From positions 18,391-82,390 of the forward strand of contig CAVPVX010000011.1 of NCBI GenBank assembly GCA_963709345.1: 64,000 bases of DNA, given 5' to 3'. The notes under the pieces are model-generated. The model searched no databases and was not told the DNA's origin. It saw only the letters and a program-made list of their open reading frames with translations. Origin of the DNA: an uncultured Actinomycetes bacterium. GTDB taxonomy: Bacteria > Actinomycetota > Thermoleophilia > UBA2241. Positions 12 to 44,558 of this stretch are shown one piece after another (the first letter of the stretch is position 1; every line of letters begins with the position of its first letter). Made by a program: the position numbers and the translations under genes.

Positions 12-869
12 CTAGATGTTGAGGCGCACGCCGTCGACGTAGCTCAGGCTGCGGCCCGCGCGTTCGATGTTGGGGTAGCCCTCGCGCGTCGCGAGCAGTC
101 GCTCGAGGCCGAATCCCAGACCGACCCACGGGTCCACGATGCCCCAGTTGCCGTCCAGGGGGTGCGGACCCATCCCGGCCGAGCAGACCTCGACGCCGTC
201 GACCTCGACGTCGACCATGGCGCCGTAGACCTCGGAATCGGTGACGACCAGCTCGTAGGGGGCGATGCCGGCGGCGGCCATGACGGCGCCGGCCAGCTCC
301 TCGAGGCGCGAGCGGCACTCGGCGGCGGGCCGGCCGAGCTCGACGAGGTTGAGCATCGTGAACTCGTTGAGGTGATTGGCGCCCTGCGAGTCGCGCCGGA
401 AGCACGCGCCGAGCTCGAAGATGCCGAACGGCTTGCTCCAGAGGCGCCCGAGCCGGCGAAGAAGCGTATACAGGTTGGGCGCCAGCATCGGACGCAGGCA
501 GCGCCCGTCGTCAAGCCAGAAGACCTGGTCGCGCAGCGGATGCCCGTGGTCGACACCCATCTTGACGAGCGAGTCCGACGTGATGATGAGGGGGGTGGCG
601 ACTCTCACGAACCCGGCGCCGGTGAGAGCGTCCGAGAGACGGGTCTCGAGCGCGACGAGTCCGGGGACCCGGGTTCCGTCACGCAGCTGCTTCAGCCGCC
701 GCCGCCCGGCCTGAGTGAGCTCGTCCTCGAGGCGCTTGAAGGCGGCGTTGCGAGCGCCGGCGTCCGGGTAGACGCCGGCGAGCGCAACGCCGCCGGCGCC
801 GAGCTCGCGCAGACGCTGGGCTTGCGTCGCCGTCAACCCGACGAGCGGGTGCTGGTCGCCCGTCGTCAT
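12..869 (-). CDS. pylS: pyrrolysyl-tRNA synthetase, C-terminal catalytic subunit (PylSc, 285 aa, ends in TAG)
   Basis: Tail of the 12..2399 minus ORF from MTTGDQHPLVGL. Class II aaRS motifs and near-identity to PylS cores: LRPMLAPNLY, HLNEFTMLNL, GPHPLDGNWGIVDPWVGLGFGLERLL, C-terminal RSLSYVDGVRLNI. ATG at 867-869 preceded by GGAGAGGAG. Confidence 0.9.
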   Translation of the reverse strand: MTTGDQHPLVGLTATQAQRLRELGAGGVALAGVYPDAGARNAAFKRLEDELTQAGRRRLKQLRDGTRVPGLVALETRLSDALTGAGFVRVATPLIITSDSLVKMGVDHGHPLRDQVFWLDDGRCLRPMLAPNLYTLLRRLGRLWSKPFGIFELGACFRRDSQGANHLNEFTMLNLVELGRPAAECRSRLEELAGAVMAAAGIAPYELVVTDSEVYGAMVDVEVDGVEVCSAGMGPHPLDGNWGIVDPWVGLGFGLERLLATREGYPNIERAGRSLSYVDGVRLNI

Positions 870-2098
870 CGCTCCGACTCCTCTCCGGGGGAGCGCGCGA
901 GGTAGTCGGCCAGACCGCCCACCAGCGCGCGCGCCAGCGTCTCGATGTGCTCGGGGCTGCGCGCGAGGGTCTCGTCGGCCGGGCAGGAGAGGAACAGAGG
1001 CTCGATCATGAGCGCGATGCCGCGCGTCTCGCGCAGCAGGCCGTAGTTGCGGCCGAAGCGCCCGATCCAGGGGACGCCGGCCGCCGTCATGCGGCCGGCG
1101 ATGTAGCCGGCGAGGCGCCGTCCGTGCTCCGAGTAGTAGTGGCTGCGCTGGAAGAAATACGCGGCGCCGCCACGGGCTTCCGGGGCCTCGTTCGCATTGC
1201 AGTGCAGCGAGATGAAGTACGCGGACCCCGCGGCGTTGGCCGCCTCGGCGCGTGCGTAGAGAGGCAGGCGCTCGTCGGTCTCGCGCGTGAGATGCACGCG
1301 GCAGCCCTCGGCGCGCAGCAGCTCCGCGAGACGCCGCCCGAGAGCCAGTGCAACATCCTTCTCGGCGAGCCCGCCGGGAGAGACCTGCCCGGTGTCGGCG
1401 CCGCCGTGTCCGGGGTCGATGGTGACGGACTGGCCGGTGAGGCTGCGCGCCGACACGTACCCGCCGTCGCGCTCGGGGATCTTCTTGCCCTCGCGGCCCG
1501 ACTCCGCCTTGCGCAGCGCCGCGAGCTTGCGGATGGTGCTCTCGCCGACGATGCCGTCGAGCGGCAGGCCGGCGTTGCGCTGGAAGTCGAGGACGGCGCG
1601 CTCCACATCGTCGTCGAGCACCCCGCGCTCGGCGCCCGCGTTGAAGCCGAGCAGGTTGAGCTTGACCTGGAGTTCGAGCACGTCGTCGCCGCGGAACGGC
1701 GGTTCGCGAAGGTACAGAAGGCGGTCGCCCAGGGTGTAGCCCGCCTCGACGAGCTCGCGCCACGTGTTGGCTCCGACGCGGCCGTCCACGAGCAGACCGC
1801 GCCGCTGCTGGAACGCGCGCAGCGCCAGCTCCGTGCCGGGGCCGAAGTAGCCGTCGACGCCCTCTCGGCCCAGCTCGAAGCCCTGCCCGCGGAGACGGGT
1901 CTGGACGTCGAGGACTTCTTTGCCGCGGTCGCCGAGAGAGAGGTCGCGCACCGGTGACTCCTGGTCGCCAGGCCCTGCTTCGCAAGGCCCGTGTCGCTGG
2001 GCCCTGGATTCTATACGACTCGCCTCGCCCTGGCGGCCTGCGCGCGGGTGAGCCACTGCCGGAGCCGAGGTTAGCGCATCGGCGTCTGGTGGTAGCAC
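866..2098 (-). CDS. N-acetylmuramoyl-L-alanine amidase, CwlM-like (two PG_binding_1 repeats plus Amidase_3); true start may be the GTG near 1958
   Basis: Motifs TIDPGHGGADTG, YFISLHCNA, MIEPLFLS and two LGDRGKEVLDVQTRL-type peptidoglycan-binding repeats. Its TGA stop overlaps the pylSc ATG (ATGA). Confidence 0.85.
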   Translation of the reverse strand: MLPPDADALTSAPAVAHPRAGRQGEASRIESRAQRHGPCEAGPGDQESPVRDLSLGDRGKEVLDVQTRLRGQGFELGREGVDGYFGPGTELALRAFQQRRGLLVDGRVGANTWRELVEAGYTLGDRLLYLREPPFRGDDVLELQVKLNLLGFNAGAERGVLDDDVERAVLDFQRNAGLPLDGIVGESTIRKLAALRKAESGREGKKIPERDGGYVSARSLTGQSVTIDPGHGGADTGQVSPGGLAEKDVALALGRRLAELLRAEGCRVHLTRETDERLPLYARAEAANAAGSAYFISLHCNANEAPEARGGAAYFFQRSHYYSEHGRRLAGYIAGRMTAAGVPWIGRFGRNYGLLRETRGIALMIEPLFLSCPADETLARSPEHIETLARALVGGLADYLARSPGEESER

Positions 2099-2147: not shown

Positions 2148-2564
2148 ATGGCGATCACGGACCCGGTGACGATCAGCTGGAAGAATGAAGGCCTCCTCTT
2201 CGAAGGGCGGTCGGCGAACGGGCGTGTGGACCTCGTGTCGTCGCTCGACGAGGGCGCCGACGGTGTGAGGCCGATGGAGATGCTCGCGCTTGCCCTCGGT
2301 AGCTGCACTGCCATGGACGTGCTCTCGATTCTGCGCAAGATGCGGCAGCCGATCGAGGCCTTCCGTGTCGAGGTGAGCGGGGAGAAGGCTGAGGACCACC
2401 CCAAGCGGTATACCTCACTCGAGGTCGTGTACTACTTCAAAGGCGAGCTCGACGCGGCCAAGGTCCGTCGCGCGATCGACCTCTCGGAGACGCGGTACTG
2501 CTCGGTGGAGGCGACCCTACGTCCGGCGGTGCCGATCACGTCGCGATACGTGATCGAGTCCTGA
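2148..2564 (+). CDS. OsmC/Ohr family peroxiredoxin-like protein
   Basis: 138 aa ORF with an OsmC-like Cys-containing core (LGSCTAMDV ... TRYCSVEATL). Confidence 0.85.
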   Translation: MAITDPVTISWKNEGLLFEGRSANGRVDLVSSLDEGADGVRPMEMLALALGSCTAMDVLSILRKMRQPIEAFRVEVSGEKAEDHPKRYTSLEVVYYFKGELDAAKVRRAIDLSETRYCSVEATLRPAVPITSRYVIES

Positions 2565-2684: not shown

Positions 2685-3392
2685 GTGGACCGCGATCACG
2701 ATTTGTCGGCCGTCCTGGCGGACGACACGCGCTATCACATTTACAGATCGATCGCGGAGCGACCCGGCGAGGACGTCACCGTGGCCGACGTGGCCGGAGG
2801 ATTCGGCCTGCACCCGAACGTCGCCCGGATGCACTTGGCGAAGCTCGAGCAGGCGGGCTTTCTCGTCACCGGCTTCCGTCGCGCCGCCGGTGGCGGGCGC
2901 CCCGCCAAGCTCTATCGCCTGAGCGAGATGGTCGTCACCTTCGGGTTCCCGCCGCGCCGCTACGACCTGCTCTCGCGACTCGCCATCGACGCCCTGGCTT
3001 CGGGCGGTACGCGAGAGGACGCGCTGCGGGTCTGTCGAGAAGCGGGCGCCGCGGAGGGGAGGCGCGCACTCGCCGGGGAGGCGGGACCGCCTCGCGACGG
3101 ACCCGCGGCGGCGACCACGATCTCCGCCATCGCCGAGGAGCAGGGCCTGCTGCCCGATGTCTCGTGGCGTGACGATTCCCTGAGCGTGGTGGTGCACAAC
3201 TGCGCGTTCAAGGAGTTGTCGGCCGCCGATCCGGATCTCGTCTGCGCCATGCACCGGGCGTACCTCGAGGGGATCCTCGACGTCGTGACCTCGAGGCTCG
3301 GCACGCTGGTCATCGCCTCGGACGGCCGTCGCATCAGTTGTGGAGACGACTGCTGCGAGCTGGTGTGCTCCTTCCGGCCCCGGCGCGCGTGA
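2685..3392 (+). CDS. HTH transcriptional regulator (ArsR/COG2345-like) with a Cys-rich C-terminal domain
   Basis: N-terminal wHTH (TRYHIYRSIAERPGEDVTVADVAGGFGLHPNVARMHLAKLEQAGFLV). C-terminal cysteines: NCAFK, CAMH, SCGDDCCELVC. GTG start after GAGGAAG. Confidence 0.6.
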   Translation: MDRDHDLSAVLADDTRYHIYRSIAERPGEDVTVADVAGGFGLHPNVARMHLAKLEQAGFLVTGFRRAAGGGRPAKLYRLSEMVVTFGFPPRRYDLLSRLAIDALASGGTREDALRVCREAGAAEGRRALAGEAGPPRDGPAAATTISAIAEEQGLLPDVSWRDDSLSVVVHNCAFKELSAADPDLVCAMHRAYLEGILDVVTSRLGTLVIASDGRRISCGDDCCELVCSFRPRRA

Positions 3393-9827: not shown

Positions 9828-11275
9828 GTGAGGGTACGGTTCGCGCCGAGCCCGACGGGCATGCTGCACATCGGTTCGGCGCGCACGGCGCTGTACAACT
9901 ACCTCTTCGCTCGCCATACGGGCGGCGCTCTCGTGCTCCGCGTCGACGACACCGACGCCGCTCGCTCTGAGGCCGCCCTCGAGGCTGCGATCATGGCCGA
10001 TCTGCGCTGGCTGGGGATCGAGTGGGACGAGGGGCCAGACGTGGGAGGTCCCGCCGGTCCGTACCGCCAGCAAGAGCGTCTGGAGCGGTATCGCGTGGCG
10101 GCCGGCGCCCTGCTCGAGAGCGGTCGGGCGTACAGGTGCTTCTGCCCCGAGGAGCGCCTCGAAGAGCTGCGCCGCGAGGCCCTGGCCGCCGGGCGCACGC
10201 CGCGCTACGACCGCCGGTGTCTCGGTCTGCCGCCCGATGAGGCACAGCGCAGGGTGGCCGCCGGGGAGCCGGCGGCGGTCCGCTTCCGGGTGCCCGCGGG
10301 GGAGGTCGTCATCGACGACCTGATCCGCGGGCACGTCACGATAGAGCATGCAGCGCTCAGCGATCCCATCATCGTGCGCTCGGACGGCGTGGCGGGCTAC
10401 AACTTCGCGAGCGTCGTCGACGATCTCGCGATGGGCATCACGCACGTCATCCGCGGCGACGACCATCTCACCAACACGGCGCGCCAGCAGTTGCTGTACG
10501 AGGCGCTCGGCGGGCCGGTGCCGCGCTTCGCGCACCACTCCATGGTCCTCGGGCCGGACGGCGGCAAGCTCAGCAAGCGCCACGGCGCCGCGGCCGTCGG
10601 GGACTACCGCGATCTCGGCTACCTGCCCTCGGCCATCGTGAACTACCTTGCGCTTCTCGGCTGGTCGCACGGCGAGGACGAGGTGCTCGGCATGGAGCGC
10701 CTCGTCGCCGAGTTCGTGCCGGAGAAGCTGTCGGCGAGCCCGGCCATCTTCGATCTTCCCAAGCTCGACTGGCTCGACCACGAGCACATCATGGCGCTCG
10801 CGCCGGAGGAGCACGAGCGCCTCTTCGCCGAGCGGCTGCCGGCGGCGACGCCGCCCAGGCGGCCGCGGCGCTGGCGGCGGCCTTCCAGCCGTCGCTGGTG
10901 CGGTACGGCGAGGCGCCGGCGCTGGCCGCGGCGGTGCTCGAGCCGCCCGCCACGCAGCCCGATCGGGCCGTCGCGTTCGCCGCCGCCGCCGCGCCCCTGG
11001 CGCGGGTGCGCGCGCTTCGCTTGGACGCGCCGGAGTGGCTCACGCCCGCGACCGCCCGCGACCTGCTCGCCGCCTACCGCGCCTGGGGCAAGGATCAAGG
11101 CATCGGCGCGCGCGACCTGCTCATGCCGCTGCGCATCGCCCTGACGGCGACCGAGCACGGTCCCGAACTGCCTTTCGTGCTGGCCGCACTCGCTCGCGAC
11201 GCCACGCTGGCGCGCCTCGACCTCGCCATCGCCGGGAACGCTGCCGATGGGCCCACGACGACTCCGGGAGAATGA
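9828..11275 (+). CDS. gltX: glutamate--tRNA ligase, with an apparent single-base frameshift near 10840-10860
   Basis: N-terminal VRVRFAPSPTGMLHIGSART, KLSKR, WLD motifs in frame 0 (inside the 9432..11144 ORF). The C-terminal anticodon-binding domain continues in the frame of ORF 10898..11275 (LRIALTATEHGPELPFVLAAL). Start could be anywhere within 9810-9828. Confidence 0.8.
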
Positions 11276-12831
11276 TCGTGATCCGCCTTTTCAACTCGCT
11301 GACACAGCAGAAAGAGCCGTTCGAGCCTCGTGACGCCGGCAAGGCGGGCATCTACTGCTGCGGTCCGACCGTGTACAACCTCGTCCACGTCGGCAATGCC
11401 CGGCCGTACGTCACCTTCGCCGTCCTGCGCTCGTGGCTCGCCCGGCGAGGTCTGGAGGCGACGCTGGTGACCAACATCACCGACGTGGACGACAAGATCA
11501 TCGCCAAGGCCAAGGTCGAGGGGCGGGACGCCGCCGCCGTAGCGGAGGAGTTCACGGCCGCCTACGTCGAGGACACGGACCGCCTCGGCATCCCGCGGCC
11601 CGACGTCGAACCGCGCGCCACCGGGACCGTTCCCGAGATCATCGACCTGGTGTGCACCCTTATCAAGGGCGGACACGCGTACGAGGCCGAGGGCAGCGTC
11701 TACTTCCGCGTGCGCAGCTTCGACGGGTACGGCAAGCTCAGCAAGCAGCGCATCGACGACCTCGAGGAGGGCGTCCGTGTGGACAACGAGCCGGGCAAGG
11801 CCGACCCCCTGGATTTCGCCGTCTGGAAGGCCGCGAAGCCGGGCGAGCCGGCCTGGGACAGCCCGTGGGGCATGGGCCGGCCCGGCTGGCACATCGAGTG
11901 CTCGGCCATGGGGTTGCGCTACCTCGGCGTCGGATTCGACGTGCACGGGGGAGGCCGCGATCTCATCTTCCCCCACCACGAGAACGAGATCGCCCAGAGC
12001 GAGGCCGCCGGCCTCCCGTTCGCCAAGGTGTGGATGCACAACGGCATGATCCGCAGTGACGGCGAGAAGATGGCCAAGAGCGTCGGCAACATCTTCCTCC
12101 TGCGTGAGGTCCTCGACCGCTACGAGCCCGCCGTCTTGCTCACCTACTTCCTCACGACGCACTACCGGAGCCCGCTCGAGTTTGGGGCCGAGAAGCTCGA
12201 CGAGGCCAAGGCGGCGCACGCGCGGCTCAGCGACGCGCTCGCGGACATCGACTTCCGTATCGCCAACGCGGCGCGCGCCGTCGCGCGAGGCGAGTGCCCC
12301 GACCTGACCCTCCGCGCCGAGGCGGCGAGGATGGCTTTCGGCGAGCGCATGGACGACGACCTCAACACGGCCGGCGCGCTCGGTGAGTTGTTCGCGCTGA
12401 TCGGCGACATGCACCGCTATCTAACGGCGGTCGACCACGGTGACTCGCCTCTCGACACCGAGGCGCTGGCGACCGTTCGCGACGTGCTGCGCGAGTCGCT
12501 CGGCGCTCTCCTGATCGACGCTCCCGGCCCGGGGGCGGACCTGACCGCCGTCGGCAGCGTCGCCGGCGAGGCCGCCGCCGCGTGTGTCACCGGAGAGGTC
12601 GCGCTGCTCCCGGCCGCGCGGCTCGCCGGGGAAGGCCGTTGGGATGACGTCGCGCTGGTCTACGCCGACCGTCTCGGCTGCGCCGACGCGTCGTACGCCT
12701 GCGTGCTGCGCGACCACTATCGCGCGCAGAAGCAGTGGGGCGAGGCCGACAGGCTGCGCGACGAGATCCAGGGCGCCGGGTTCGAGGTGCGCGACACGCC
12801 CCAAGGCACGCAGGTGGTCAGGAAGCCTTGA
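11272..12831 (+). CDS. cysS: cysteine--tRNA ligase
   Basis: CGPTVYNLVHVGNARPY, KMAKSVGN, WHIECS. ATGA overlap with the gltX stop. Confidence 0.9.
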   Translation: MIVIRLFNSLTQQKEPFEPRDAGKAGIYCCGPTVYNLVHVGNARPYVTFAVLRSWLARRGLEATLVTNITDVDDKIIAKAKVEGRDAAAVAEEFTAAYVEDTDRLGIPRPDVEPRATGTVPEIIDLVCTLIKGGHAYEAEGSVYFRVRSFDGYGKLSKQRIDDLEEGVRVDNEPGKADPLDFAVWKAAKPGEPAWDSPWGMGRPGWHIECSAMGLRYLGVGFDVHGGGRDLIFPHHENEIAQSEAAGLPFAKVWMHNGMIRSDGEKMAKSVGNIFLLREVLDRYEPAVLLTYFLTTHYRSPLEFGAEKLDEAKAAHARLSDALADIDFRIANAARAVARGECPDLTLRAEAARMAFGERMDDDLNTAGALGELFALIGDMHRYLTAVDHGDSPLDTEALATVRDVLRESLGALLIDAPGPGADLTAVGSVAGEAAAACVTGEVALLPAARLAGEGRWDDVALVYADRLGCADASYACVLRDHYRAQKQWGEADRLRDEIQGAGFEVRDTPQGTQVVRKP

Positions 12832-12932
12832 GTCGACGGTACAGAACACGATGAGCGCCGCCACGACTGTGGCCGAGCCGGCGATGTCGCCGTCGATGCC
12901 GAGCAGCAGCGCCGCGCGGGTCGCGTAGCGGT

Positions 12933-13643
12933 ATGGACTGGATCTACGGCCGAAACGTGGTGAGGCTGGCGCTGGCCGCCGGCGCGCGGCGGCGAGCCAT
13001 GAGGCTCGCCGCGACCGCGCCGGCGCTCAAGGCGCTCGGTGCGGCGCTCCCGCCGGCGCTTCCCGTCGAGAAGGTGACCGGCGACGCGCTCCACGAGCTG
13101 CTCGGCACCCATGAGCACCAAGGGGTCGCGCTGCAGGTCGAGGCGTTCTCCTACGCCGACCCCGGCGAGTTGCTGGCCGGCGACGTGATCGTCGTGCTGG
13201 ACGAGGTCACCGACCCGCACAACCTCGGCGCCGTCGCGCGCACCGCGTTGGCCGCCGGGGCCGCGGGCCTCGTGCTGCCGAAGCATCGCTCCGCCCACGT
13301 GACGCCGGCGGCCGTGAAGGCGTCCGCCGGCACGCTGGAGCACCTTCCCGTTACCCAGGTGACGAACGTCGTGAGCTTCCTCGGCGACGCCAAGAAGGCG
13401 GGCTTCTGGACGTACGGGGCGGCCGGTGAGGCTTCGATCCCGTATCTCGAGCTCGACCTCACGGGCCGCGTCGTGCTCGTGCTCGGGGCCGAGGGACGCG
13501 GACTGCGGCCGCTCGTCGCCCGCACCTGCGACGCGCTCGTCGCCATCCCGATGGCGCCGCCGGTAGAGAGCCTCAACGTCAGCGTGGCGGCGGCGCTGCT
13601 CCTGTACGAGGTCCGCCGCCGGCGACAGGCGGAGGGGGGGTGA
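12933..13643 (+). CDS. rlmB: 23S rRNA (guanosine-2'-O)-methyltransferase RlmB (SpoU/TrmH family)
   Basis: SpoU motifs (VVLDEVTDPHNLGAVARTA, VLVLGAEGRGL, SLNVSVAAALLLYE). Confidence 0.85.
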   Translation: MDWIYGRNVVRLALAAGARRRAMRLAATAPALKALGAALPPALPVEKVTGDALHELLGTHEHQGVALQVEAFSYADPGELLAGDVIVVLDEVTDPHNLGAVARTALAAGAAGLVLPKHRSAHVTPAAVKASAGTLEHLPVTQVTNVVSFLGDAKKAGFWTYGAAGEASIPYLELDLTGRVVLVLGAEGRGLRPLVARTCDALVAIPMAPPVESLNVSVAAALLLYEVRRRRQAEGG

Positions 13644-13689
13644 CGGTGCCGTCGCTCCCAGATGAGAGCGCTTCGGCGATTGCAGGCGT

Positions 13690-14205
13690 ATGACTGACGC
13701 GCTCTACATCGTCGACGGCTACAACGTCCTGCACGCCATGTTCCGCGGCGCCGGCAAAGAGGAGATCTTCGCGCGCCGCGACTGGCTCGCCGGCCAGCTG
13801 GCGAGCTTCGTCGCCCTTCGCGGCGCGCGGGCCGTCCTGGTCTTCGATGGGCGCGGCCCAGTCAGCACCACCAGCGTCCCGATGAAGGGGGCGCCGGTCG
13901 AGGTGGTGTTCGCCGGCGGCCGCTACACCGCCGACACGCTGATCGCCCGCCGCATCGCCGAACAGCCCGCCGACGTGCAGGTCGTCGTGGTCTCCGCCGA
14001 TCAGGAGGTCCAGCGCGCCGCCTCGCGTGCCGGCGTCAGCCGGATGACGCCGCCCGAGCTGGCCGGCCACCTGTCCGGCGGCACGCAGCGCGGGCAGGCT
14101 CTTGACTCTGCCTCACACTCGACTAGAATGCCCTCACGGCTTGAGGATGAAGTTGACCCTGAGACTTTGCGCAAGCTGGAGGAACTGCGGAACAAGCCGC
14201 AGTAG
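13690..14205 (+). CDS. yacP: NYN-domain YacP/Rae1-like ribonuclease
   Basis: MTDALYIVDGYNVLHA N-terminus. Bacillus-type position between rlmB and sigH. TAG stop. Confidence 0.8.
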   Translation: MTDALYIVDGYNVLHAMFRGAGKEEIFARRDWLAGQLASFVALRGARAVLVFDGRGPVSTTSVPMKGAPVEVVFAGGRYTADTLIARRIAEQPADVQVVVVSADQEVQRAASRAGVSRMTPPELAGHLSGGTQRGQALDSASHSTRMPSRLEDEVDPETLRKLEELRNKPQ

Positions 14206-14266
14206 GCGTTCCGGAGGCTCGATTCACGGAACGTGCAGGGGCAAACGAGCGGAGGTGGGGACAAGA

Positions 14267-14944
14267 ATGGCTCGCCAGGCCGACCACAGCCGCGGCTCGA
14301 GGTCATCTCACAGCCCTCAACCCTACAGTGAGAGTAACGACTTCGCCCTGGTTCAGGCATACCGCCGGGGGAACCAGGCGGCGCTCGACGCGCTGATGCT
14401 GCGCTACCACCAGTTCGTCCGTCTCAAGGCCAGCTCCTACTTCCTTGCCGGCGGCGACGCCGAGGATCTCATACAGGAGGGCATGCTGGGCCTCTACAAG
14501 GCCGTCCGGGATTACCGCGACGACCGTCTGGCGAGCTTCCGCAGTTTCGCCGAGCTCTGCATCACCCGGCAGATCATCACCGCCATCAAGACGGCGACGC
14601 GTCAGAAGCACGTGCCGCTGAACGGCTATCTCTCGTTCAGCCAGTCGCCGAGCGACTCGTCGGATGACGGAGACTGCTCGCTCGCCGACGTGCTGCCGGG
14701 GCCCACGACACACGACCCGGTCAACCAGGTCATCAGCTCGGAGGAGGTCGACAGCCTCACGAGTTGCCTGACGCGCATGCTGTCCGAGCTCGAGGGGAAG
14801 GTCCTGCGGTTCTACCTGCAGGGGCTGAGCTACGAGCGCATCGGCGGCGAACTCGGGTGCGACTGCAAGACGGTCGACAACGCGTTGCAGCGGATCAAGC
14901 GCAAGGTCGACCTGCATCTCGAGGGGCGGCGCGTTCCCAGCTGA
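14267..14944 (+). CDS. sigH: RNA polymerase sigma factor, SigH-like (sigma-70 regions 2 and 4 only)
   Basis: ATG after GGAGGTGGGGA. DLIQEGMLGLYKAVRDY and a C-terminal HTH. The upstream part of the 14102 ORF was discounted. Confidence 0.8.
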   Translation: MARQADHSRGSRSSHSPQPYSESNDFALVQAYRRGNQAALDALMLRYHQFVRLKASSYFLAGGDAEDLIQEGMLGLYKAVRDYRDDRLASFRSFAELCITRQIITAIKTATRQKHVPLNGYLSFSQSPSDSSDDGDCSLADVLPGPTTHDPVNQVISSEEVDSLTSCLTRMLSELEGKVLRFYLQGLSYERIGGELGCDCKTVDNALQRIKRKVDLHLEGRRVPS

Positions 14945-14957
14945 CCGCGCACGCGTA

Positions 14958-14987
14958 CCGCGGCGCTCCCGTTCCCGAGCGCCGCGG
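14958..14987. terminator. bidirectional hairpin between convergent sigH and pilT
   Basis: ccgcggcgctc / gagcgccgcgg 11 bp stem with an 8 nt loop, followed by ctt ct. Confidence 0.4.
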
Positions 14988-14996
14988 CTTCTCCCG

Positions 14997-16088
14997 CTAG
15001 AACGTCATGAGGCTGACGTCGTGTCCCTGCTGCTGGACGAGCAGCTTGAAGTCGTGCGGGTTGCTCGCCACCTGGGCTGCGTCGCTGAGGATGATGAGGC
15101 CTTCCTCGTACAACGTGAGCAGGGCTTGGTCGAAGGTCTGCATCCCGTAGAAGTCACCCTCTTTGATCGCATCACCCACCAGGCCGGCCTGGTCGGGGTC
15201 GAGAATGAAGTCGCGGATCCGGTTCGTGCACACCATGATCTCGATGGCCGGCACGCGGCCCTTGCCGTCCGCGCGCACGAGCAGGCGCTGGCTGATGATG
15301 CCCTTGAGAGTCCCGGCGAGCATGATCCGGATCTGCTTCTGCTGGTGGAGGGGGAAGAAGTCGATGATCCGGTTGATCGTCTCGGTCGCGTCGATGGTAT
15401 GCAGGGTGCTCATCACGAAGTGACCGGTCTGGGCGGCTGTGAGCGCCGCCGCCACCGTCTCCGGGTCGCGCATCTCGCCGATGAGGATGTCGTCGGGGTC
15501 TTGCCGAAGGACGTACTTGAGCGCCGAGGCGTAGGTGTCGGTGTCGAGACCGATCTCTCGCTGGTTGATGATGGACTTCTTGTCTTTGTGGAGGACTTCG
15601 ATCGGATCCTCCACGGTGACGATGTGGCGGCGCATGGTGTTGTTGATGTGGTCGATCATCGCCGCCAGCGTGGTGGTCTTGCCGGAGCCGGTCGTGCCCG
15701 TCACGAGGACGAGCCCGCGCGGTTCCAGCGCGAGCCGCTTGATGATCTCGGGGAGATGCAGCTCCTCGAAGCTGGGGATCCTCGTCGTGACCTGGCGCAT
15801 GGCCACGCTGATGCTGCCGCGCTGCCGGAAGACGTTGACGCGGAACCGGCCGAGGTCCGGGGCGGAGTAGGCGAAGTCGATCTCGTTGTGCTCGCTGAAC
15901 CGGCGGATCTGCTTGTCGGTCATGATCGAGGCGGCCACGTCCTTGGTGTCTTCGGGAGTGAGCGGCGGCTCGTCCATCAATACCAGCTCGCCGTCGACGC
16001 GGATCACCGGAGGGCTCCCTGCCTTGATGTGCAGGTCCGACGCGGCGCGTGCCATCATCTCGCTGAGCAGCTGATCGATCGGTTTCAC
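14997..16088 (-). CDS. pilT: type IV pilus retraction ATPase PilT
   Basis: Walker A GTTGSGKTT and PilT-family sequence throughout. TAG stop. Confidence 0.9.
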   Translation of the reverse strand: MKPIDQLLSEMMARAASDLHIKAGSPPVIRVDGELVLMDEPPLTPEDTKDVAASIMTDKQIRRFSEHNEIDFAYSAPDLGRFRVNVFRQRGSISVAMRQVTTRIPSFEELHLPEIIKRLALEPRGLVLVTGTTGSGKTTTLAAMIDHINNTMRRHIVTVEDPIEVLHKDKKSIINQREIGLDTDTYASALKYVLRQDPDDILIGEMRDPETVAAALTAAQTGHFVMSTLHTIDATETINRIIDFFPLHQQKQIRIMLAGTLKGIISQRLLVRADGKGRVPAIEIMVCTNRIRDFILDPDQAGLVGDAIKEGDFYGMQTFDQALLTLYEEGLIILSDAAQVASNPHDFKLLVQQQGHDVSLMTF

Positions 16089-16215
16089 GTGGCGGCCCCG
16101 TAGGTAGCGGTCTCTCTCTCACACTCACTAGTCGGCAGAAGGCGCGAAAAGCTTACTCTTCGCCGCAGCGGCGTGCCTGCCGTCGGAACGCTGCTCCGAC
16201 CGCCGCGACGCAGGG

Positions 16216-17256
16216 CTAGAAACGGCCGCCGATCCAGGCGCCTCGACCGTTGAGCGCGCCGTACCGCACGACATCGCCCGTGTGCGGCGCCTCGATGACG
16301 GCGCCGCCGCCGGCATAGATGGCGACGTGGTGACTGAAGCTCGCGTTGCCGAAGAAGACCAGGTCACCGGGGCGCATGTCGCTGAGCGCGACCGGCGTGC
16401 TCTGCTGCTGCTGCACGGTGGCGCCGTGGTACATGTGGATGCCGATCTGGGCATAGCAGTACATGGTGAGACCGGAGCAGTCGAAGCCGCTCGGGCCGGC
16501 GCCGCCCCAGACGTAGGGGACCCCGAAGTACCGCTGGGCGATTGTGATGATCTCGGGGTGACCCGGGCTGTCCGGGTCGACCGGGGGCGGCGTGATGCCG
16601 TTCCAGCTGCTCTGCGCGGCGAGCCGCGCCGCCCGCTCCGCCGCTTCTCTCAGCCGCTTGATCTCCGACTTGATGCCGCGCGTGAGCCGCCGGAGCTTGG
16701 CTTCGAGCGCGAGCAGCTCGTTCTTGTGTTCCTGGCGCTCCGCGACGAGCCTGGCCGCGGCGCGCTTGTCCGCCTCAAGCTTGACGCGCCGGTCCTTGAT
16801 GTCACGCTTGTAGGCGGCGATGCTCTTGACCGTGTCGACATCGCTGTTGCCGAGGCGCTCCATGAGGTCGAGCTGGGTGATGAGGTCGTCGAACGAATCC
16901 GCCTCGAAGAGCACGTCGACGATGCCGACGTCGCGGGTCTTGTAGATGCTCTCGGCGCGCGTCTTGAGCTGGTCGTTCGCCGTCTGCAGATTGCGCTCGG
17001 CGAGCTCCAGTTGCCGCTGGTTCTCGTCGATCTGCTGATTCACGGTGTCGAGCTGGCTGGTGGCCTGGGCGTACTTCTCGACCGCGATCTCGGATTTCAG
17101 GTAGACCTGGTCGAGGTGGGCCTGCACGGCACGCAGACGGGCCTTCTTCTCGGAGATCGGCGACGCCGGCGCTGCCGCGGCTGCGATCAGCAGCACAACG
17201 AGCACGCCGAAGATGGCAGGAAGCGCCGTGCGCAGGGTGCGGGAGCGGTGGTTCAC
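16216..17256 (-). CDS. NlpC/P60 peptidoglycan endopeptidase with N-terminal coiled coil (RipA-like), paralog 1
   Basis: Signal/TM, long coiled coil, C-terminal GVPYVWGGAGPSGFDCSGL ... H ... H catalytic domain. GTG start after AAAGGA. TAG stop. Confidence 0.85.
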   Translation of the reverse strand: MNHRSRTLRTALPAIFGVLVVLLIAAAAAPASPISEKKARLRAVQAHLDQVYLKSEIAVEKYAQATSQLDTVNQQIDENQRQLELAERNLQTANDQLKTRAESIYKTRDVGIVDVLFEADSFDDLITQLDLMERLGNSDVDTVKSIAAYKRDIKDRRVKLEADKRAAARLVAERQEHKNELLALEAKLRRLTRGIKSEIKRLREAAERAARLAAQSSWNGITPPPVDPDSPGHPEIITIAQRYFGVPYVWGGAGPSGFDCSGLTMYCYAQIGIHMYHGATVQQQQSTPVALSDMRPGDLVFFGNASFSHHVAIYAGGGAVIEAPHTGDVVRYGALNGRGAWIGGRF

Positions 17257-17336
17257 TCGATGCTGTCCTTTCGCGCCACCAGAGCAGTGACGCGCTGTGA
17301 GTACGTCCGGTTCACGAGGTGAGAACCTATTCGTGC

Positions 17337-17380
17337 CTGAGGGCGCGTTCCCTACCTGCGGCAGGGGACGCGCCCTTCAG
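17337..17380 (-). terminator. long near-perfect hairpin just downstream of p60 paralog 2
   Basis: ctgagggcgcgttccctacctgcggcaggggacgcgcccttcag: ~17 bp stem, small loop. No U-tract. Confidence 0.4.
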
Positions 17381-17399
17381 ACACTCGCGAGCGTCGGCG

Positions 17400-18452
17400 T
17401 CAGGGCCGTCCGCCTATCCAGGCGTGACCCATGGGGCCGTATCGGACGACGTCGCCGGTGTGCGGCGCGTGGATCATCTGCCCGCCGCCCACGTAGATGC
17501 CGACGTGGGAGCTGAAGCTTGCGTTGCCGAAGAAGACGAGGTCACCGGGCTGCAACGCGCTCAGCGGCACCGGGGTGGTGGCGCGCTGCTGCAGCGTGGC
17601 GCCGTGCGCGAGGCCGACTCCGACCTGCGCGTAGCAGTACATGGTGAGGCCGGAGCAGTCGAAGCCGCTCGGGCTGGCGCCGCCGTACACGTACGGAACG
17701 CCGAGGTATCGCTGAGCGATGGCGACGACCGAGGAGTTGCCGGAACCGCCCGGATCGACGACCGTGCCACCACTGGTGGACCCGCCCGCGCTCTGTTGCG
17801 CCGCCTGGGCGGCCTGGGCCGCGGCGCGCGCCGCGGCCGCCTGCTGGTCCTGGAGGCGCTTGATGTCGGACTTGATGCCGGCCGTCATCTGCTCGAGGCG
17901 GTTCTGCAGGCCGACGATCTCGGCCTTCTGCGTCGCCGCCTCGTCGACCAGCTTGGCGGCGGCCTTCTTGTCGGCGTCGAGGCGGACCCGACGATCCTTG
18001 ATGTCCTGCCGGTAGGCGTCGATGCTCTTGACGGTGTCGACGTCGCTGTTGCCGAGGCGCTCCATGAGGTTGAGCTGCGTCACCAGGTCGTCGAAGCTGT
18101 CGGCGGCGAAGAGGACGTCGACCACGCCGACGTCGCGCGTCTTGTAGATGCTCTCGGCTCGTGACGAGAGTTGCGTGTTGGCGACTTCCAGGTTGTACTC
18201 GGCGACCTTGAGCAGACGCTGGTTCTCGCTGATCTGGTGCTGGACGGTGGTGAGCCGGCTCCTGGCCTGGTTGAACTTCTCGAGTGCGACGTCGACTTCA
18301 TGGTAGACCTTCTGGAGCTTGGCCTGCACCTGGCGCAGCTGTGCTTTCTTGCTGCTGACGGGAGTGGAGAGGGCGGAAGGAACGAGGGTGAGAGAGAAAA
18401 GGATGGCGCCGAGAAAGACGGAGAGGGTGGTGATTCGTCGTGTGTGCTTCAC
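17400..18452 (-). CDS. NlpC/P60 peptidoglycan endopeptidase with N-terminal coiled coil (RipA-like), paralog 2
   Basis: Closely similar to paralog 1 (same coiled-coil and GVPYVYGGASPSGFDCSGL domain). GTG start after AGAGGAGG. The upstream part of the 17400..18812 ORF was discounted. Confidence 0.85.
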   Translation of the reverse strand: MKHTRRITTLSVFLGAILFSLTLVPSALSTPVSSKKAQLRQVQAKLQKVYHEVDVALEKFNQARSRLTTVQHQISENQRLLKVAEYNLEVANTQLSSRAESIYKTRDVGVVDVLFAADSFDDLVTQLNLMERLGNSDVDTVKSIDAYRQDIKDRRVRLDADKKAAAKLVDEAATQKAEIVGLQNRLEQMTAGIKSDIKRLQDQQAAAARAAAQAAQAAQQSAGGSTSGGTVVDPGGSGNSSVVAIAQRYLGVPYVYGGASPSGFDCSGLTMYCYAQVGVGLAHGATLQQRATTPVPLSALQPGDLVFFGNASFSSHVGIYVGGGQMIHAPHTGDVVRYGPMGHAWIGGRP

Positions 18453-18631: not shown

Positions 18632-20044
18632 TCACTCCGAGCCGGCGCTCGGGGTCGTGCCGCGAGGGCCTGGGTTCGGCCACATGCGCTTCAGGGCCTG
18701 GATGAAAGCCTTGTTGCGCTCGTCCTTGCGCCAGTTGTGGATGATCACCATGCCCCACCAGTGGAACATGAGCTGCTTGGTGAACTTGAGCGCGAAGATG
18801 TAGCGCAGCCAAGTGCGGATCGAGTAGAAGCGCATGTACCCGCGCAGATCCTCCATCTGCAGCTCGTAGGGGGTCATGAGCTTCGGTTCGAACACGACGT
18901 GGTGCGCGTCGTAGAGGTGCCAGCGCTTGTCGAAGATGCGCCCCGCGGCGTCGAGGTTGTCGTATTGCGGTGTGCCCGGCAGCGGCGTGAGGATGTTCAG
19001 CATCACCGTGTCGATGTGGTTCTTGATCGCGAAGGTCACCGTGTCGCGGACCGTCTGCACGTCGTCGGTGTCGGCGCCGAGCACGAACATGCCGTGACTG
19101 CGGATGTCGTAGTCGTGAAGCTTGCGGATGCCCTCGACGATGTCTTCGACGGTCTGCGCCTTCTCGAAGCTGTCGAGCGTCGCCTGGCTGACCGACTCGA
19201 GGCCGAGGTAGACGAGCTCGCAGCCCGAGTCCCTCATGAGCTCGAGCAGTTCCTCGTCGCGCGTCACGTCGGTGCGCACCTGGGCGGACCAGGGGATGAC
19301 GAGGTCTTCGTCGATCATCATGCGCAGGAGCTTCTTGAGGCGCTTCTTGTCGGCGGCCATGTTGTCGTCGTAGAAGAAGATGCGTCCGGGCCGCTTGTCC
19401 TTGATCTCGGCGATCACGCTCTCGGCGCTGCGAAAGCGGTACTTGCGGCCGAACATCGCCGTCACCGAGCAGAAGTTGCAGGCGAACGGGCAGCCCCAGC
19501 TTGTCATGATCGGGATGGTGGTCAGCCTTTCGCCGCCGACCAGCAGCTTGAGGTCGGGGAAGGGGAGCTCGTCGAGGTCGTCGAGCCGCTCACGGAGTTG
19601 GTTGTGAACGGCTTTGCCGTCACGGCGGAACGAGAGGCCGGCGATGGTGTCCAACTCGCGGTCGCCGGCGAGCGCCTCGATGAGCTCCAGCATGAGCTGC
19701 TCGCCGCCCTCGCCGCGGGCCACGTAGTCGACGTGCTCGAGGGCCTCGTCGGCCATGAACGTGACGTGGGAGCCTCCGATGACGACGGGGATGCCGCGTG
19801 CGCGCAGGTTGTCGGCGTCCTCGTAGGCGGTGGTCGTCGTCGACGTCGTGCTCGAGAGGCCGACCAGATCCGAGGTGTTCACGTCGTCCCAATCGATCGG
19901 CGCCATCTGGGGGTTGTAGACGAGCACATCGTGCCCGTGCGCCTTGAGAGTGGCGGCGATGATCGGCAGGCCGAGGCGCGGCAGAAGGACCTTGGCGTAG
20001 ACGTGCATCCCTGGAGGTTCGGGCTCGATGAGGCGGATCTTCAT
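18632..20044 (-). CDS. B12-binding domain radical SAM enzyme (canonical CxxxCxxC)
   Basis: N-terminal B12-binding-like domain. Radical SAM motif SWGCPFACNFCS. ATG after AAGGAG. Confidence 0.85.
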   Translation of the reverse strand: MKIRLIEPEPPGMHVYAKVLLPRLGLPIIAATLKAHGHDVLVYNPQMAPIDWDDVNTSDLVGLSSTTSTTTTAYEDADNLRARGIPVVIGGSHVTFMADEALEHVDYVARGEGGEQLMLELIEALAGDRELDTIAGLSFRRDGKAVHNQLRERLDDLDELPFPDLKLLVGGERLTTIPIMTSWGCPFACNFCSVTAMFGRKYRFRSAESVIAEIKDKRPGRIFFYDDNMAADKKRLKKLLRMMIDEDLVIPWSAQVRTDVTRDEELLELMRDSGCELVYLGLESVSQATLDSFEKAQTVEDIVEGIRKLHDYDIRSHGMFVLGADTDDVQTVRDTVTFAIKNHIDTVMLNILTPLPGTPQYDNLDAAGRIFDKRWHLYDAHHVVFEPKLMTPYELQMEDLRGYMRFYSIRTWLRYIFALKFTKQLMFHWWGMVIIHNWRKDERNKAFIQALKRMWPNPGPRGTTPSAGSE

Positions 20045-20201
20045 GGCGCTCCTTGAAACGAGGTCTCGGTCGTCGGCCTCTGCGGCGCGGCATGTCGCCA
20101 CGGCACGAAGGACACGGACGCTCAAGTCGAGATGATAGTCGCTGGTCGCGACCCTGAAAAGACTGGGGCCTGGGCGGCGATGGCGGCGCCCATCGGCAGT
20201 C

Positions 20202-23772: not shown

Positions 23773-24420
23773 GTGTCCGACGAGCTCTACGCACAGATGA
23801 AGCAGACCGTGATCGACGGCGAGGCCGAGGACGCCGCGCGCCTCGCCCAGGAGGGCCTCGACGCCGGCCTGCCCGCCGCCGACATCCTCGACCAGGGCTT
23901 CGTCAAGGGCATCGAGGAGGTCGGCGACCTCTTCGGCCAAGGGCGAGTTCTTCCTCCCCGAGCTCGTCCAGGGCGCCGAGGCGATGAAGGCCGCCGTGGC
24001 CGTCCTGCAGCCGGCCCTCGACGCCTCCGGCGGCGGCCGCAAGGCGCTCGGCATCGCCGTCGCCGGCACCGTCGCCGGCGACATCCACGAGATCGGCAAG
24101 ACGATCGTCTGTTCCATGCTCAGCGCCGCCGGCTTCACGGTCACCGACGTCGGCTGCGACGTACCGGTCGAGACTTCGTTGCCGCGGTCAAGGACTCAGG
24201 CGCCGACCTGCTCCTGCTCTCCGCCCTGCTGACCACGACGATGCCCAACCAGCAGAAGACGATCGAGGCGCTCAAGGAGGCCGGCCTGCGCGACGGCGTC
24301 AAGGTGATGATCGGCGGCGCCCCGACGACCCGCGCCTGGGCCGACGAGATCGGCGCCGACGGCTACGCCGAGGACGCGATCGAGGCCGTGGCCACCGCCA
24401 AGACGATCCTCGGGGTCTGA
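23773..24420 (+). CDS. methyltransferase-type corrinoid (B12-binding) protein, MtbC/MttC/MtaC family, interrupted by two compensating frameshifts
   Basis: N-terminal cap domain (DQGFVKGIEEVGDLFGQG), then the middle part in the +1 frame (ORF 23984: GTVAGDIHEIGKTIV, DxHxxG), returning to frame at FVAAVKDSGADLLLLSALLTTTMP ... GGAPTT. There is an extra G in the ggg at ~23941 and a missing T near 24176. Confidence 0.8.
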   Translation: MSDELYAQMKQTVIDGEAEDAARLAQEGLDAGLPAADILDQGFVKGIEEVGDLFGQGRVLPPRARPGRRGDEGRRGRPAAGPRRLRRRPQGARHRRRRHRRRRHPRDRQDDRLFHAQRRRLHGHRRRLRRTGRDFVAAVKDSGADLLLLSALLTTTMPNQQKTIEALKEAGLRDGVKVMIGGAPTTRAWADEIGADGYAEDAIEAVATAKTILGV

Positions 24421-24540: not shown

Positions 24541-25739
24541 ATGGCCGCCGATCACAGCGCATACTTCGAAGAGGTCGAGGCGCGTTTCGCCGCGCGCCCA
24601 CGACCTCGACCTCGGGCTCGAGGAGGAGTTCCAGGTCCTCGACCCCGAGACTCCTGGAGCTCACATTCGGGTTTCGAGGCCCTTCACGACGCCGCGCCTC
24701 CGCGACTGCGCGAGCGCGTCGCCGGTGAACTCCTGCGCTCCGAGATCGAGGTGTCGACGCCGCGCACGCTCCACTTCGGGCAGGCGGCGAAGCAGACTCC
24801 TGCTCAATCGCGCCGAGCTGTTTCCGCTGGCGGACCGGGTGGGCTTCGCTCTGGGCGCCGGCGGCACGCATCCCTTCTCGGCCTGGAAGGACCAGGAGAT
24901 CATCGACACGCCGCACTACCGTCTTGTCGAGGAGCGGCTCAAGTACGTCGCCTGGCGCAACAACACGTGGGCGGCGCATGTGCACGTGGGGGTGCGCGGC
25001 TGCGACCGCGCCGTCGCCGTGTGCGACGCCCTGCGGACGTATCTGCCGCACCTGCTGGCGCTCTCGGCCAACTCCCCCTTCATCGAGGACGTGTGGACCG
25101 AGCTGCACTCGGTCGCGCACCCAGACCTTCCTGCGCATGTTCCCGCGCTGCGGCATCCCGGACGTCTTCGGCTCGTGGGCCGAGCACCGGCGCTTCTACG
25201 AGGAACTCGTCGACACCGACTGCATCCAGGAGTTCACGCAGATCTGGTGGGCTGTGCGACCGCACCATCGCTTCGGCACCGTCGAGGTGCGCATCTGCGA
25301 CGCCCAGAACGAGGCCTGGCAGAGTCTCGCGATCTCGTCGCTGACGGTCGGGCTCGTCGCGCACCTCGCGCGCGTCTACGATGAGGGTCATGCCGCTGCC
25401 CTACCTCGAGACGCGCTACATCGAAGAGAACCTCTGGCGCGCGATCCGCTACGGTCTCGACGGCAAGCTCGTCGATTGGGAGGCGAAAGCGGAGGCTTCC
25501 GGCGGCCGACGCCGTCCGGCGCCTCGTGGAGCTCGCGGCTCCCTTTGCCGACGCGCATCGGGCTGACGCCGCATCTCGGCCAGGTGGAGCGCATGCTCCG
25601 GGAGGGCAACGGGGCGCAACAGCAGAGTAGGGCTTACATTGAGGGTGAGAGTCTGCGCGAGGTCTTCGCGGGGACGTCGGGGCGGAGGCTCGCTCCGAGC
25701 TCACTCGAGCCGGCGACCGAGACGCAGGGAGGATCGTGA
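24541..25739 (+). pseudogene. ybdK: carboxylate-amine ligase YbdK (GCS2 family) broken by at least 7 single-base frameshifts
   Basis: Conserved YbdK segments found successively in frames 1,2,0,1,2,0,1,0: LGLEEEFQVLDPET, LELTFGFEALHD, GGTHPFSAWKDQEI, AHVHVGVRGCDRAVAV, LALSANSPF, FPRCGIPDVFGSW, WWAVRPHHRFGTVEVRICDAQ, MPLPYLETRYIEENLWRAIRYGLDG. Confidence 0.75.
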
Positions 25740-26370: not shown

Positions 26371-27051
26371 TCAGGCGCCGGCGAGCGCCCAGAAACGCGC
26401 CTCTTCGAGCGTCTCGCCGGGCTCGACGACGAGGAACTCCTCGTCGTGGGGCCCGGCGACGAGCTTCTCGAGGAAGCGCAGCGACCCGGACAGGTACTCA
26501 AGCGGCAGATCGTAGAAGGCGCTCACGGTCTCCAGGTACTCGCGTTTGTCGTCGAGGCCGGGAACGCCGGGCGTCTCGATGACGGCCACGCGCGTGTAAT
26601 TCTCCATGATGAGACGCGCGACGTAGGCGGCCTTCTCCTCGCCGTACTTGGGCACGATCTTCAGGTACTCCTTGTACGGGTCGTCGATGAAGTCGACCCA
26701 GCCGCGGGTGTAGTAGTAGGTGCCCGGCTGGCCGCCGTGCTCCTCGAGGTAGCGGGCGCGAGAGCCGAGCAGCAGCGAGATGCAGTCGTCCACGGCGGGC
26801 AGGACGAGCCGGTGCGATCGCGCCTCGAGGCCCACGGTGCCGTTGCTGCAGCGGCCGCAACAGAGCATGATGTCGCGCTCGCCCGGCGTGCCGTCGATGC
26901 GCTCCTGGAGTGCGCTACGCAGCTTGTCCGGGTAGTCGTGCAGGGCGCCGTCGACGAACTCCACCTCGAGCCCGCGCCCGTCGCGTGCGAGCACGCTCTC
27001 GATCTCGTTGCGGAGGACCTCGCAGCTGACGATCTTCGGTGGCGCATCCAT
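26371..27051 (-). CDS. DUF1638 protein (family commonly next to corrinoid methyltransferase genes)
   Basis: 226 aa from MDAPPKIVSCEVLRNEIE. The upstream part of the 26371..27729 ORF was discounted. Confidence 0.7.
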   Translation of the reverse strand: MDAPPKIVSCEVLRNEIESVLARDGRGLEVEFVDGALHDYPDKLRSALQERIDGTPGERDIMLCCGRCSNGTVGLEARSHRLVLPAVDDCISLLLGSRARYLEEHGGQPGTYYYTRGWVDFIDDPYKEYLKIVPKYGEEKAAYVARLIMENYTRVAVIETPGVPGLDDKREYLETVSAFYDLPLEYLSGSLRFLEKLVAGPHDEEFLVVEPGETLEEARFWALAGA

Positions 27052-27241
27052 CGGGCCATGGTAACAGGACCATCCGGGTCCTGTCGCCTCGCACGCGCCG
27101 GGCGCTCGGGAGCGCTGCCCGGACGGCGCGCAGGCGTGTGCCTCGTCTTGGCCTGCGGTAGCATGGAGGGCGCGTCTTGCGAAGCACTGCCGGCGCGGGC
27201 AGCGGGAACGGCCCGCCCGCGCCTGACCCGAGGAGGACTCC

Positions 27242-28096: not shown

Positions 28097-28103
28097 CGGC
28101 GCC

Positions 28104-28631
28104 GTGACTCCGCCGCGCCAAGGCTACGTCCAGCTCTACACCGGAGACGGCAAGGGAAAGACGACGGCCGCCCTCGGCCTCGTCGTGCGGGCGCTCGGCC
28201 AGGGTCTGCGGCCGGCCGTGCTGCAGTTCATGAAGTCCGATCCCACCTGGGGCGAGATCGTCACGCTCAAACGGCTGGAGGTGCCGGTTCGCCAGTGCGG
28301 GCTCGACCACTGGGTCTTCAAGGGCGAGGCCTCGGAAGAGGACCTCGCCGCCGCCGCCGCCGGCTTCGACCAGGCGCTCGCTCTCGTCGACAGTGGCGAG
28401 TACGACGTCGTCATCCTCGACGAGCTCGTGACGGCCGTCTTCTTCGAGCTCGTTCCCGTCGAGCGTGTGCTCGCCATGATCGCCGCGAAGCCGCCGGCCG
28501 TCGAGCTCGTGATCACCGGCCGCCGTGCCCCGGAGGAACTGCTCGCGGCGGCCGATCTGGTCACCGAGATGCGCCCCGTCAAGCACTACTTCGATGCTGG
28601 GGTCAAGGCTCGCCCGGGCATCGAGTACTAG
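28104..28631 (+). CDS. cobO: cob(I)yrinic acid a,c-diamide adenosyltransferase
   Basis: GYVQLYTGDGKGKTTAALG P-loop. CobA/CobO/BtuR family. The upstream part of the 28029 ORF was discounted. Confidence 0.85.
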   Translation: MTPPRQGYVQLYTGDGKGKTTAALGLVVRALGQGLRPAVLQFMKSDPTWGEIVTLKRLEVPVRQCGLDHWVFKGEASEEDLAAAAAGFDQALALVDSGEYDVVILDELVTAVFFELVPVERVLAMIAAKPPAVELVITGRRAPEELLAAADLVTEMRPVKHYFDAGVKARPGIEY

Positions 28632-43463: not shown

Positions 43464-43472
43464 GCTGGGTCC

Positions 43473-44558
43473 ATGGCCGCCATCGACGACCTCATCACCG
43501 AGATCGAACGCTCCTACGAGGAGCTCAACACCCATCTCGCCGACCCTGCGGTGATCGGCGACCGCGGGCGCTACGCCGACGTCGCCCGCGCACATGCCGA
43601 GCTGCAACCGGTCCACGAGCTCACCGTGACGTATCGGGATGTCGAGCGCACGGTCGCCGACGCCGAGGTCCTGCTCGGCGACGACTCGTCCGACGCCGAG
43701 ATGCGCGAATTCGCTCAGGAGGAGCTTCTCGAGGGGCGCCGCCGGATCGACGAGCTCAGCGAGGAGATCCGCGTGCGCATGCTCACGCGCGACCCCAACG
43801 ACGCCAAGGACGTGATCATCGAGATCCGCGCCGGCACCGGTGGTATCGAGGCGTGCATCTTCGCCGGCGAGCTGGCGCGCATGTACACGCGGTACGCCCA
43901 GGCCAAGAGCTTCGAGGTCGAGATCATGTCGGCCGACGAGAACGACGACGGCGGCTTCAAAGACGTGACGCTCGAGGTCAAGGGCCAGGGCGCCTACTCC
44001 GCGCTCAAGTACGAGGGCGGCGTCCACCGCGTGCAGCGCGTGCCGGTGACCGAGGCCGCCGGGCGCATCCACACCTCGACCGCGACCGTGGCTGTGCTGC
44101 CCGAGGCCAAGGACATCGAGGTCGACATCCAGCCGAACGACCTGCGCATCGAGATCTTTCGCGCCCGCGGGCCCGGCGGTCAGAGCGTCAACACGACCGA
44201 CTCGGCGGTGCGCATCACGCACGTGCCCAGCGGCGTGTCGGTGAGCTGCCAGGACGAGAAGAGCCAGCTGCAGAACAAGGACAAGGCGATGCGGATCCTG
44301 CGCGCCCGGCTCTTCGATCTGGAGCAGGCCCGGCAGGACGAGGAGCGCGGTGCGGCGCGGCGCAGCATGGTCGGCAGCGGCGACCGCTCGCAGAAGATCC
44401 GCACCTACAACTTCCAGCAGAACCGGGTCAGCGACCACCGCATCGGGCTCACCAGCCACCGCATCGCCGAGGTGATGGAGGGCGACCTCGACGAGTTCAC
44501 CGAGGCGCTCGCCGCCGAGGACCGGCGCAAGCAGCTGGCGGCGGCCGGCGGCGGCTGA
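43473..44558 (+). CDS. prfA: peptide chain release factor 1
   Basis: PVT tripeptide (RVQRVPVTE) and GGQ (RGPGGQSVN). Confidence 0.9.

Follow-up and report, generated by a model that had tools for sequence, protein, structure and literature searches.

A split-type pyrrolysyl-tRNA synthetase catalytic subunit gene in an uncultured Thermoleophilia bacterium

We analysed a stretch of 64,000 nucleotides (hereafter the window) from an uncultured Thermoleophilia (Actinomycetota) bacterium, which carries near its left edge an intact gene for the catalytic subunit of pyrrolysyl-tRNA synthetase (PylSc), the enzyme by which pyrrolysine, a rare amino acid and the 22nd, is attached to its tRNA. By function and family, this PylSc is a canonical bacterial split PylRS catalytic subunit, i.e. 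a further orthologue of a known system. As a whole, the evidence is best explained by a functional PylSc in a methylamine-using bacterium that decodes pyrrolysine (Pyl) at specific sites, a reading that we consider highly probable. Going by what is known of the family, from which both enzymatic activity and physiological role are deduced, PylSc would supply the class II catalytic part of the two-gene bacterial enzyme; with a separate PylSn as its partner it would load pyrrolysine, itself made by PylB, PylC and PylD from two lysines, onto a tRNA-Pyl with a CUA anticodon. Certain in-frame UAG codons in the genes of methylamine methyltransferases that depend on a corrinoid (MtbB and, probably, MttB) would then be read as Pyl, and these Pyl-containing methyltransferases would let the organism demethylate di- and trimethylamine. 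Elsewhere UAG would remain a stop read by release factor 1 (RF1), with decoding being ambiguous or regulated.

The pylSc gene and its product

The features at the left end of the window are as follows.

12..869, minus strand: pylSc, pyrrolysine--tRNA(Pyl) ligase large (catalytic) subunit, 285 aa
12..14, minus strand: TAG stop codon of pylSc
866..869, minus strand: ATGA overlap of the pylSc start (867-869) and the amidase stop (866-868)
866..1951, minus strand: N-acetylmuramoyl-L-alanine amidase with two PG_binding_1 domains, 361 aa (Pfam Amidase_3, 132.7 bits; PG_binding_1, 114.9 bits)
2148..2564, plus strand: OsmC-like protein, a synteny marker (Pfam OsmC, 69.3 bits)
2685..3392, plus strand: HTH_20 regulator, a synteny marker (Pfam HTH_20)

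Read from the sequence, the pylSc frame runs on the minus strand from an ATG at 867-869 to a TAG at 12-14 (285 codons), without frameshifts or internal stops, and the window edge lies 11 nt past the stop codon. GC content at the three codon positions is 0.74/0.48/0.91, typical of a real gene in high-GC DNA, and we therefore take 12..869 as the coding frame; the plus-strand ORFs overlapping it are shadows. Overall GC is 70.9% for the ORF and 69.7% for the window, slightly lower than the 72% that the preliminary description had given for the genome. Because the GC3 of 0.91 matches that of the neighbors and the gene is surrounded by housekeeping genes (cysS, rho, prfA, glyQS, dnaG, rpoD), we regard pylSc as native to this genome, and rejected a recent horizontal transfer or a mis-binning of the contig.

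The product scores 317.9 bits against TIGR02367 (NCBIfam PylS_Cterm), an equivalog domain model with a curated cutoff of 178.15 bits, and covers profile positions 1-242 of 242. Scores are 17.6 bits against PheS (TIGR00468) and 35.9 bits against the PheS-related ligase SrmL, so that the proposed comparison of PylS models with PheRS and other class II families came out clearly for PylS. Pfam finds the generic class II core only (tRNA-synt_2d), and with the full-length archaeal PylRS model only the C-terminal catalytic part is aligned (model positions 181-424). The best solved structures are those of Desulfitobacterium hafniense PylSc (3DSQ/2ZNI, 316 bits, query residues 12-285), followed by ΔPylSn-type and Methanosarcina enzymes. 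The D. hafniense protein (3DSQ, 2ZNI/2ZNJ) is of the same length class (288 aa as compared to 285 aa), can be aligned from residue 12 to the C-terminal '...SLSY.DGVRLNI', and has the class II core in common with the window protein, whose relatives have a separate PylSn partner. With these matches, the preliminary description was right in taking the 285-aa product for a PylSc that is intact over the class II core and the C-terminus, and in assigning it to the bacterial split type. Between the window PylSc, whose host is a high-GC actinobacterium, and its nearest homologues from Firmicutes and Desulfobulbus, identity is only 50–56%.

The catalytic domain of Methanosarcina mazei PylRS (a fused PylSn-PylSc; PDB 2Q7E) is 41% identical to the window PylSc over 239 residues, and the window protein lacks the fused N-terminal tRNA-binding domain. 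For the alignment of the pocket we used an M. mazei PylRS sequence, which has the right residue at 13 known numbered positions. All eight pocket residues compared are kept: A130, L133, Y134, L137, R158, N174, Y215 and W248 of the window protein correspond to A302, L305, Y306, L309, R330, N346, Y384 and W417 of the M. mazei enzyme, respectively. The window protein differs in having valine for C348, glycine for V401 and histidine for I405; valine at position 348 is also natural in the PylRS of Ca. Methanomethylophilus alvus. Judging from the sequence, the product of 12..869 is a real and probably functional PylSc.

Genomic neighborhood and partner genes

The 4-nt ATGA overlap suggests that the amidase gene and pylSc are co-transcribed and translationally coupled. 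An amidase gene also directly precedes pylSc in four related loci (L002, L059, L060 and L061), with the same 4-nt overlap in the last three. Further upstream of the amidase-pylSc pair are the OsmC gene, the HTH_20 regulator and a PmbA/TldD pair. The order HTH_20 - OsmC - amidase - pylSc is common to contigs L059, L060 and L061, whose PylSc proteins are 91%, 86% and 82% identical to that of the window, respectively (the OsmC gene was matched by position in all three, and the HTH_20 gene in L060 and L061), and it is also found in GTDB representative genomes labelled Thermoleophilia.

As the preliminary description had stated, the other pyl genes are not in the window: PylSn, PylB, PylC and PylD gave no match by tblastn, no CUA-anticodon tRNA was found in the 64 kb by ARAGORN and Rfam, and the tRNA-Pyl of the related genomes, used as a blastn-short query, had no match in the window either. 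Since only 11 nt of the window remain beyond the pylSc stop, this absence carries no information. ARAGORN also reported a 'tRNA-???' of 92 nt with a 4-nt anticodon (gcgg) at 10864-10955 on the plus strand; it is probably a false positive, being without an Rfam match and lying inside the N-terminal extension of the cysS ORF (10642-12831), in which the CysRS domain begins at residue 227.

In the related genomes, the partner genes are close by. All 24 high-GC syntenic loci with a full 10-kb flank contain PylSn, PylD, PylC, PylB (tblastn) and a 73-nt tRNA-Pyl(CUA) (ARAGORN). Downstream of pylSc, and on the strand opposite to it, each of these 24 loci has a corrinoid-protein gene, pylSn, tRNA-Pyl(CUA) and pylD-C-B, all no more than about 8.5 kb away, with the tRNA about 4 kb past pylSc. 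In L060 (86% identical PylSc), the 3' end of the corrinoid gene is 100 nt after pylSc. The arrangement in locus L002 is listed below; its PylSn, PylD, PylC, PylB and pyl_corrinoid proteins each pass their own NCBIfam cutoff.

11106-11798, minus strand: SAM methyltransferase (in some loci only)
11890-12540, minus strand: methylamine-type corrinoid protein (TIGR02370, 218.9 bits)
12803-13681, plus strand: radical SAM gene
13698-14072, minus strand: pylSn (TIGR03912, 127.5 bits)
14114-15049, plus strand: lipoprotein gene
15124-15196, minus strand: tRNA-Pyl(CUA) (ARAGORN)
15238-16041, minus strand: pylD (203.7 bits)
16041-17282, minus strand: pylC (338.6 bits)
17290-18402, minus strand: pylB (443.2 bits)

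Going by these orthologous loci, the partner genes of the window pylSc should lie just left of coordinate 1, within about 8.5 kb, on the plus strand. The preliminary description had also placed them beyond coordinate 1, in agreement with the position seen in the 24 relatives; it had put them on the minus strand, whereas in the relatives they are convergent with pylSc, which corresponds to the plus strand of the window.

The arrangement differs from that of the Firmicutes type. In Sporomusa (L033), pylSc-pylB-pylC-pylD-pylSn share a strand, which also carries pylT upstream of them. In the Thermoleophilia clade, by contrast, pylSc stands apart: it is coupled to the cell-wall amidase gene and convergent with corrinoid-pylSn ... 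pylT-pylD-pylC-pylB, and pylT follows pylD. The tRNA-Pyl of the clade (L002 and 23 other loci) is nearly invariant, with 73 nt including the encoded CCA. It folds into a compact Pyl-type cloverleaf: a single nucleotide joins the acceptor stem to the D stem, the D loop has 5 nt, the anticodon stem is long, the variable region has 2–3 nt, and position 73 is G. The 72-nt tRNA-Pyl of Firmicutes lacks one unpaired A that the clade has between D and anticodon stems, and a C·A mismatch is found in the anticodon stem in L007, L011, L026 and L055. We regard these differences as modest variations.

Two other readings of the gene have to be weighed against a working PylSc. It could be a PylS-like paralogue with another substrate or role, for instance an enzyme that loads a different derivative of lysine, or a ligase that does not act on tRNA, as among other PheS-related enzymes; the weak secondary similarity to SrmL (35.9 bits) and the valine at the position of C348 would fit this. 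However, the score is far beyond the equivalog cutoff of TIGR02367 with end-to-end coverage, the equivalents of N346, R330, Y384 and W417 are all present, valine at 348 is natural in PylRS, and in relatives the gene is paired with canonical pylT, pylSn and pylBCD, so we consider a paralogue very unlikely. Somewhat less remote, and still improbable, is an orphan or relic pylSc that was kept within the amidase operon while the rest of the system was lost or inactivated, in which case no Pyl would be decoded. That partner genes are not seen within the 64-kb window, that pylSc is physically and transcriptionally apart from pylBCD-pylT in the clade, that other window genes including one for a corrinoid protein are frameshifted, and that the MtbB gene adjoining a PRTase gene in a related locus (L004) is missing at the equivalent window position would all fit a relic. 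Against it, the ORF is intact with coding-type GC3 and with all of the pocket residues kept, the complete gene set lies within about 8.5 kb in 24 of the 24 syntenic relatives with enough flank, and the window simply stops 11 nt past the stop codon.

Reading of UAG

The window encodes RF1:

43464..44558, plus strand: prfA, release factor 1 (TIGR00019, 483.7 bits with a cutoff of 423; 297.8 bits against prfB)

RF1 would compete with Pyl-tRNA at UAG. TAG terminates about a quarter of the coding-like ORFs in the window, including pylSc, rho, ppdK and the cobO-like gene, i.e. it is not avoided despite the probable use of Pyl. Three places where a coding frame runs on past a TAG came up in a scan of the window, none of which is a read-through gene. 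They are ordinary gene boundaries, where the gene after the TAG is separate and has its own start: the cobO-like adenosyltransferase and lysA (28629-28631), rho and rpmE (41159-41161), and ppdK and a GNAT gene (52474-52476).

Among the 27 readable loci of Thermoleophilia-clade relatives, pylSc ends in TAG in 17 and in TGA in 10. A functional extension of PylSc by read-through of its TAG was considered and rejected, with tails that are not conserved and many relatives having TGA; because of this variation and the lack of a conserved tail, we take the pylSc TAG for a plain stop. We note that in L002 (~19994-20010), L003, L004, L021 and L052 an aldehyde:ferredoxin oxidoreductase (AOR) gene ends in a TAG that is in frame with the next gene, encoding a 4Fe-4S ferredoxin. 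A conserved AOR-TAG-ferredoxin read-through fusion was likewise rejected, with L019 having a TGA in the equivalent context and other loci having the two genes in different frames.

The presence of RF1, the ordinary TAG stops and the unconserved pylSc tails together indicate that UAG is a normal stop in this genome and not reassigned genome-wide; it would be suppressed at particular sites, which is the usual picture for Pyl-using bacteria. In a genome-wide reassignment, with UAG meaning pyrrolysine throughout (recently suggested for certain archaea), RF1 would be lost and TAG avoided, and neither is observed here. The termination of pylSc itself in TAG could be seen as a hint of such reassignment, but the tails after this TAG are unconserved among relatives, RF1 is encoded in the window, and about a quarter of the coding-like ORFs stop at TAG, with a separate gene and its own start after each of rho, ppdK and the cobO-like gene. 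We consider reassignment extremely unlikely and retain site-specific use.

Methylamine use and distribution in Thermoleophilia

With MtbB and the C-terminal half of MtmB as tblastn queries, no match was found in the window. In locus L004, from a Thermoleophilia metagenome-assembled genome (MAG), there is a gene for the dimethylamine methyltransferase MtbB with a single in-frame TAG (651-2093, minus strand), about 8 kb from pylSc on its other side. The read-through product matches Pfam Dimeth_Pyl with 552 bits over profile positions 4-462 of 463, aligned across the TAG. No other Pyl-type methyltransferase was found in the 10-kb flanks when all 24 loci were considered. At the corresponding place the window has no MtbB, so any methyltransferase genes of the window genome are elsewhere. 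The corrinoid protein beside pylSc in L002 scores 206.9 bits against the model of the dimethylamine corrinoid protein MtbC, the closest named equivalog after the generic TIGR02370. Ellenbogen et al. (2023, PMC10805028) report expression of Pyl-encoding mttB and mtbB by Actinobacteriota MAGs in Stordalen Mire, and one of the related loci (L025) is from a Stordalen 'palsa' MAG. Because of the TAG-containing MtbB of L004, the MtbC-like corrinoid protein and the expression in the mire, corrinoid-dependent demethylation of di- and trimethylamine is the likely role of Pyl here.

Several corrinoid-related genes are found in the window itself. In an MtbC/MtgC-type corrinoid gene (23773-24420, plus strand), the outer thirds are in one frame, but only the +1 frame gives the middle third with the B12-binding motif 'GDIHEIGK'. 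This change of frame implies two compensating frameshifts, from a pseudogene or from long-read indel errors. Close to it, a GCS2/YbdK-like carboxylate-amine ligase gene (24541-25739, plus strand) is apparently split over two frames, an assessment made by eye on the translated ORFs. Both genes point to pseudogenes or to indel errors of long reads, and they call for caution on the partner genes, which could be damaged or mis-assembled. Three more genes form a corrinoid-related cluster, beside which no MttB/MtbB/MtmB-type methyltransferase was found:

18635-20050, minus strand: B12-binding radical SAM protein
26374-27063, minus strand: DUF1638 gene (131.5 bits)
28029-28631, plus strand: cobO-like corrinoid adenosyltransferase (identified by eye)

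Close relatives of the window PylSc are numerous. A protein found in NCBI/ENA on a 486-kb contig (P0001) is 100% identical to it, and at 73–91% identity to it there are more than 100 clusters (built at 90% identity). The Thermoleophilia homologues from MAGs (e.g. HET6476731.1, which is P0016; loci L002-L061) are 75–91% identical to it, share the upstream synteny and show no difference of substance. NCBI names some of the homologues 'pyrrolysine--tRNA(Pyl) ligase large subunit [Thermoleophilia bacterium]'. Since related public genomes commonly contain the gene set, and under its right name, the window pylSc is a routine find. Two Actinobacteria are among the 81 bacterial PylRS-encoding genomes of Guo et al. 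(2022, PMC9630628), in which PylSn was found in all but 11. The statement in the preliminary description that pyrrolysine is rare and, as far as known, occurs only in a few Firmicutes, Deltaproteobacteria and methanogens is thus outdated, given that survey, the Stordalen Mire data (PMC10805028) and the Thermoleophilia homologues named by NCBI. In the literature that we searched, no paper on pyrrolysine in Thermoleophilia specifically was found, so that the breadth of the trait in the class seems under-described; this is a cataloguing matter and not a new mechanism.

The window adds one more high-GC actinobacterial genome to the probable pyrrolysine users, its host being an uncultured soil or wetland Thermoleophilia, and its relatives show that many Thermoleophilia MAGs of soils and wetlands have the trait. 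This bears on which organisms consume methylamines in methane-producing environments, and genetic-code engineering gains one more natural PylRS/tRNA-Pyl variant to draw on. What is known of the Pyl system is not altered by this, as the gene family and its presence in the phylum are already in databases and papers. We are doubtful about a broader reading, according to which Thermoleophilia would be a large, essentially undescribed reservoir of bacterial Pyl decoding in soils, wetlands and sediments, with its own locus architecture (an amidase-coupled pylSc convergent with the corrinoid gene, and pylB-C-D-T as a separate unit) and the 73-nt tRNA-Pyl variant. If it were true, the PylRS/tRNA pair of the clade could behave unlike the known classes (e.g. 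be mutually orthogonal to them), and the lineage could be an overlooked di-/trimethylamine sink competing with methylotrophic methanogens.

Two minor features of the window are found toward its right end. Two RpoD-like sigma-70 genes are in tandem after dnaG (55308-56546 and 56579-57697, both on the plus strand), and a second copy of about 100 aa from the C-terminus of the ammonium transporter Amt (62090-62506, minus strand) lies directly downstream of the full amt gene (62556-63932, minus strand).
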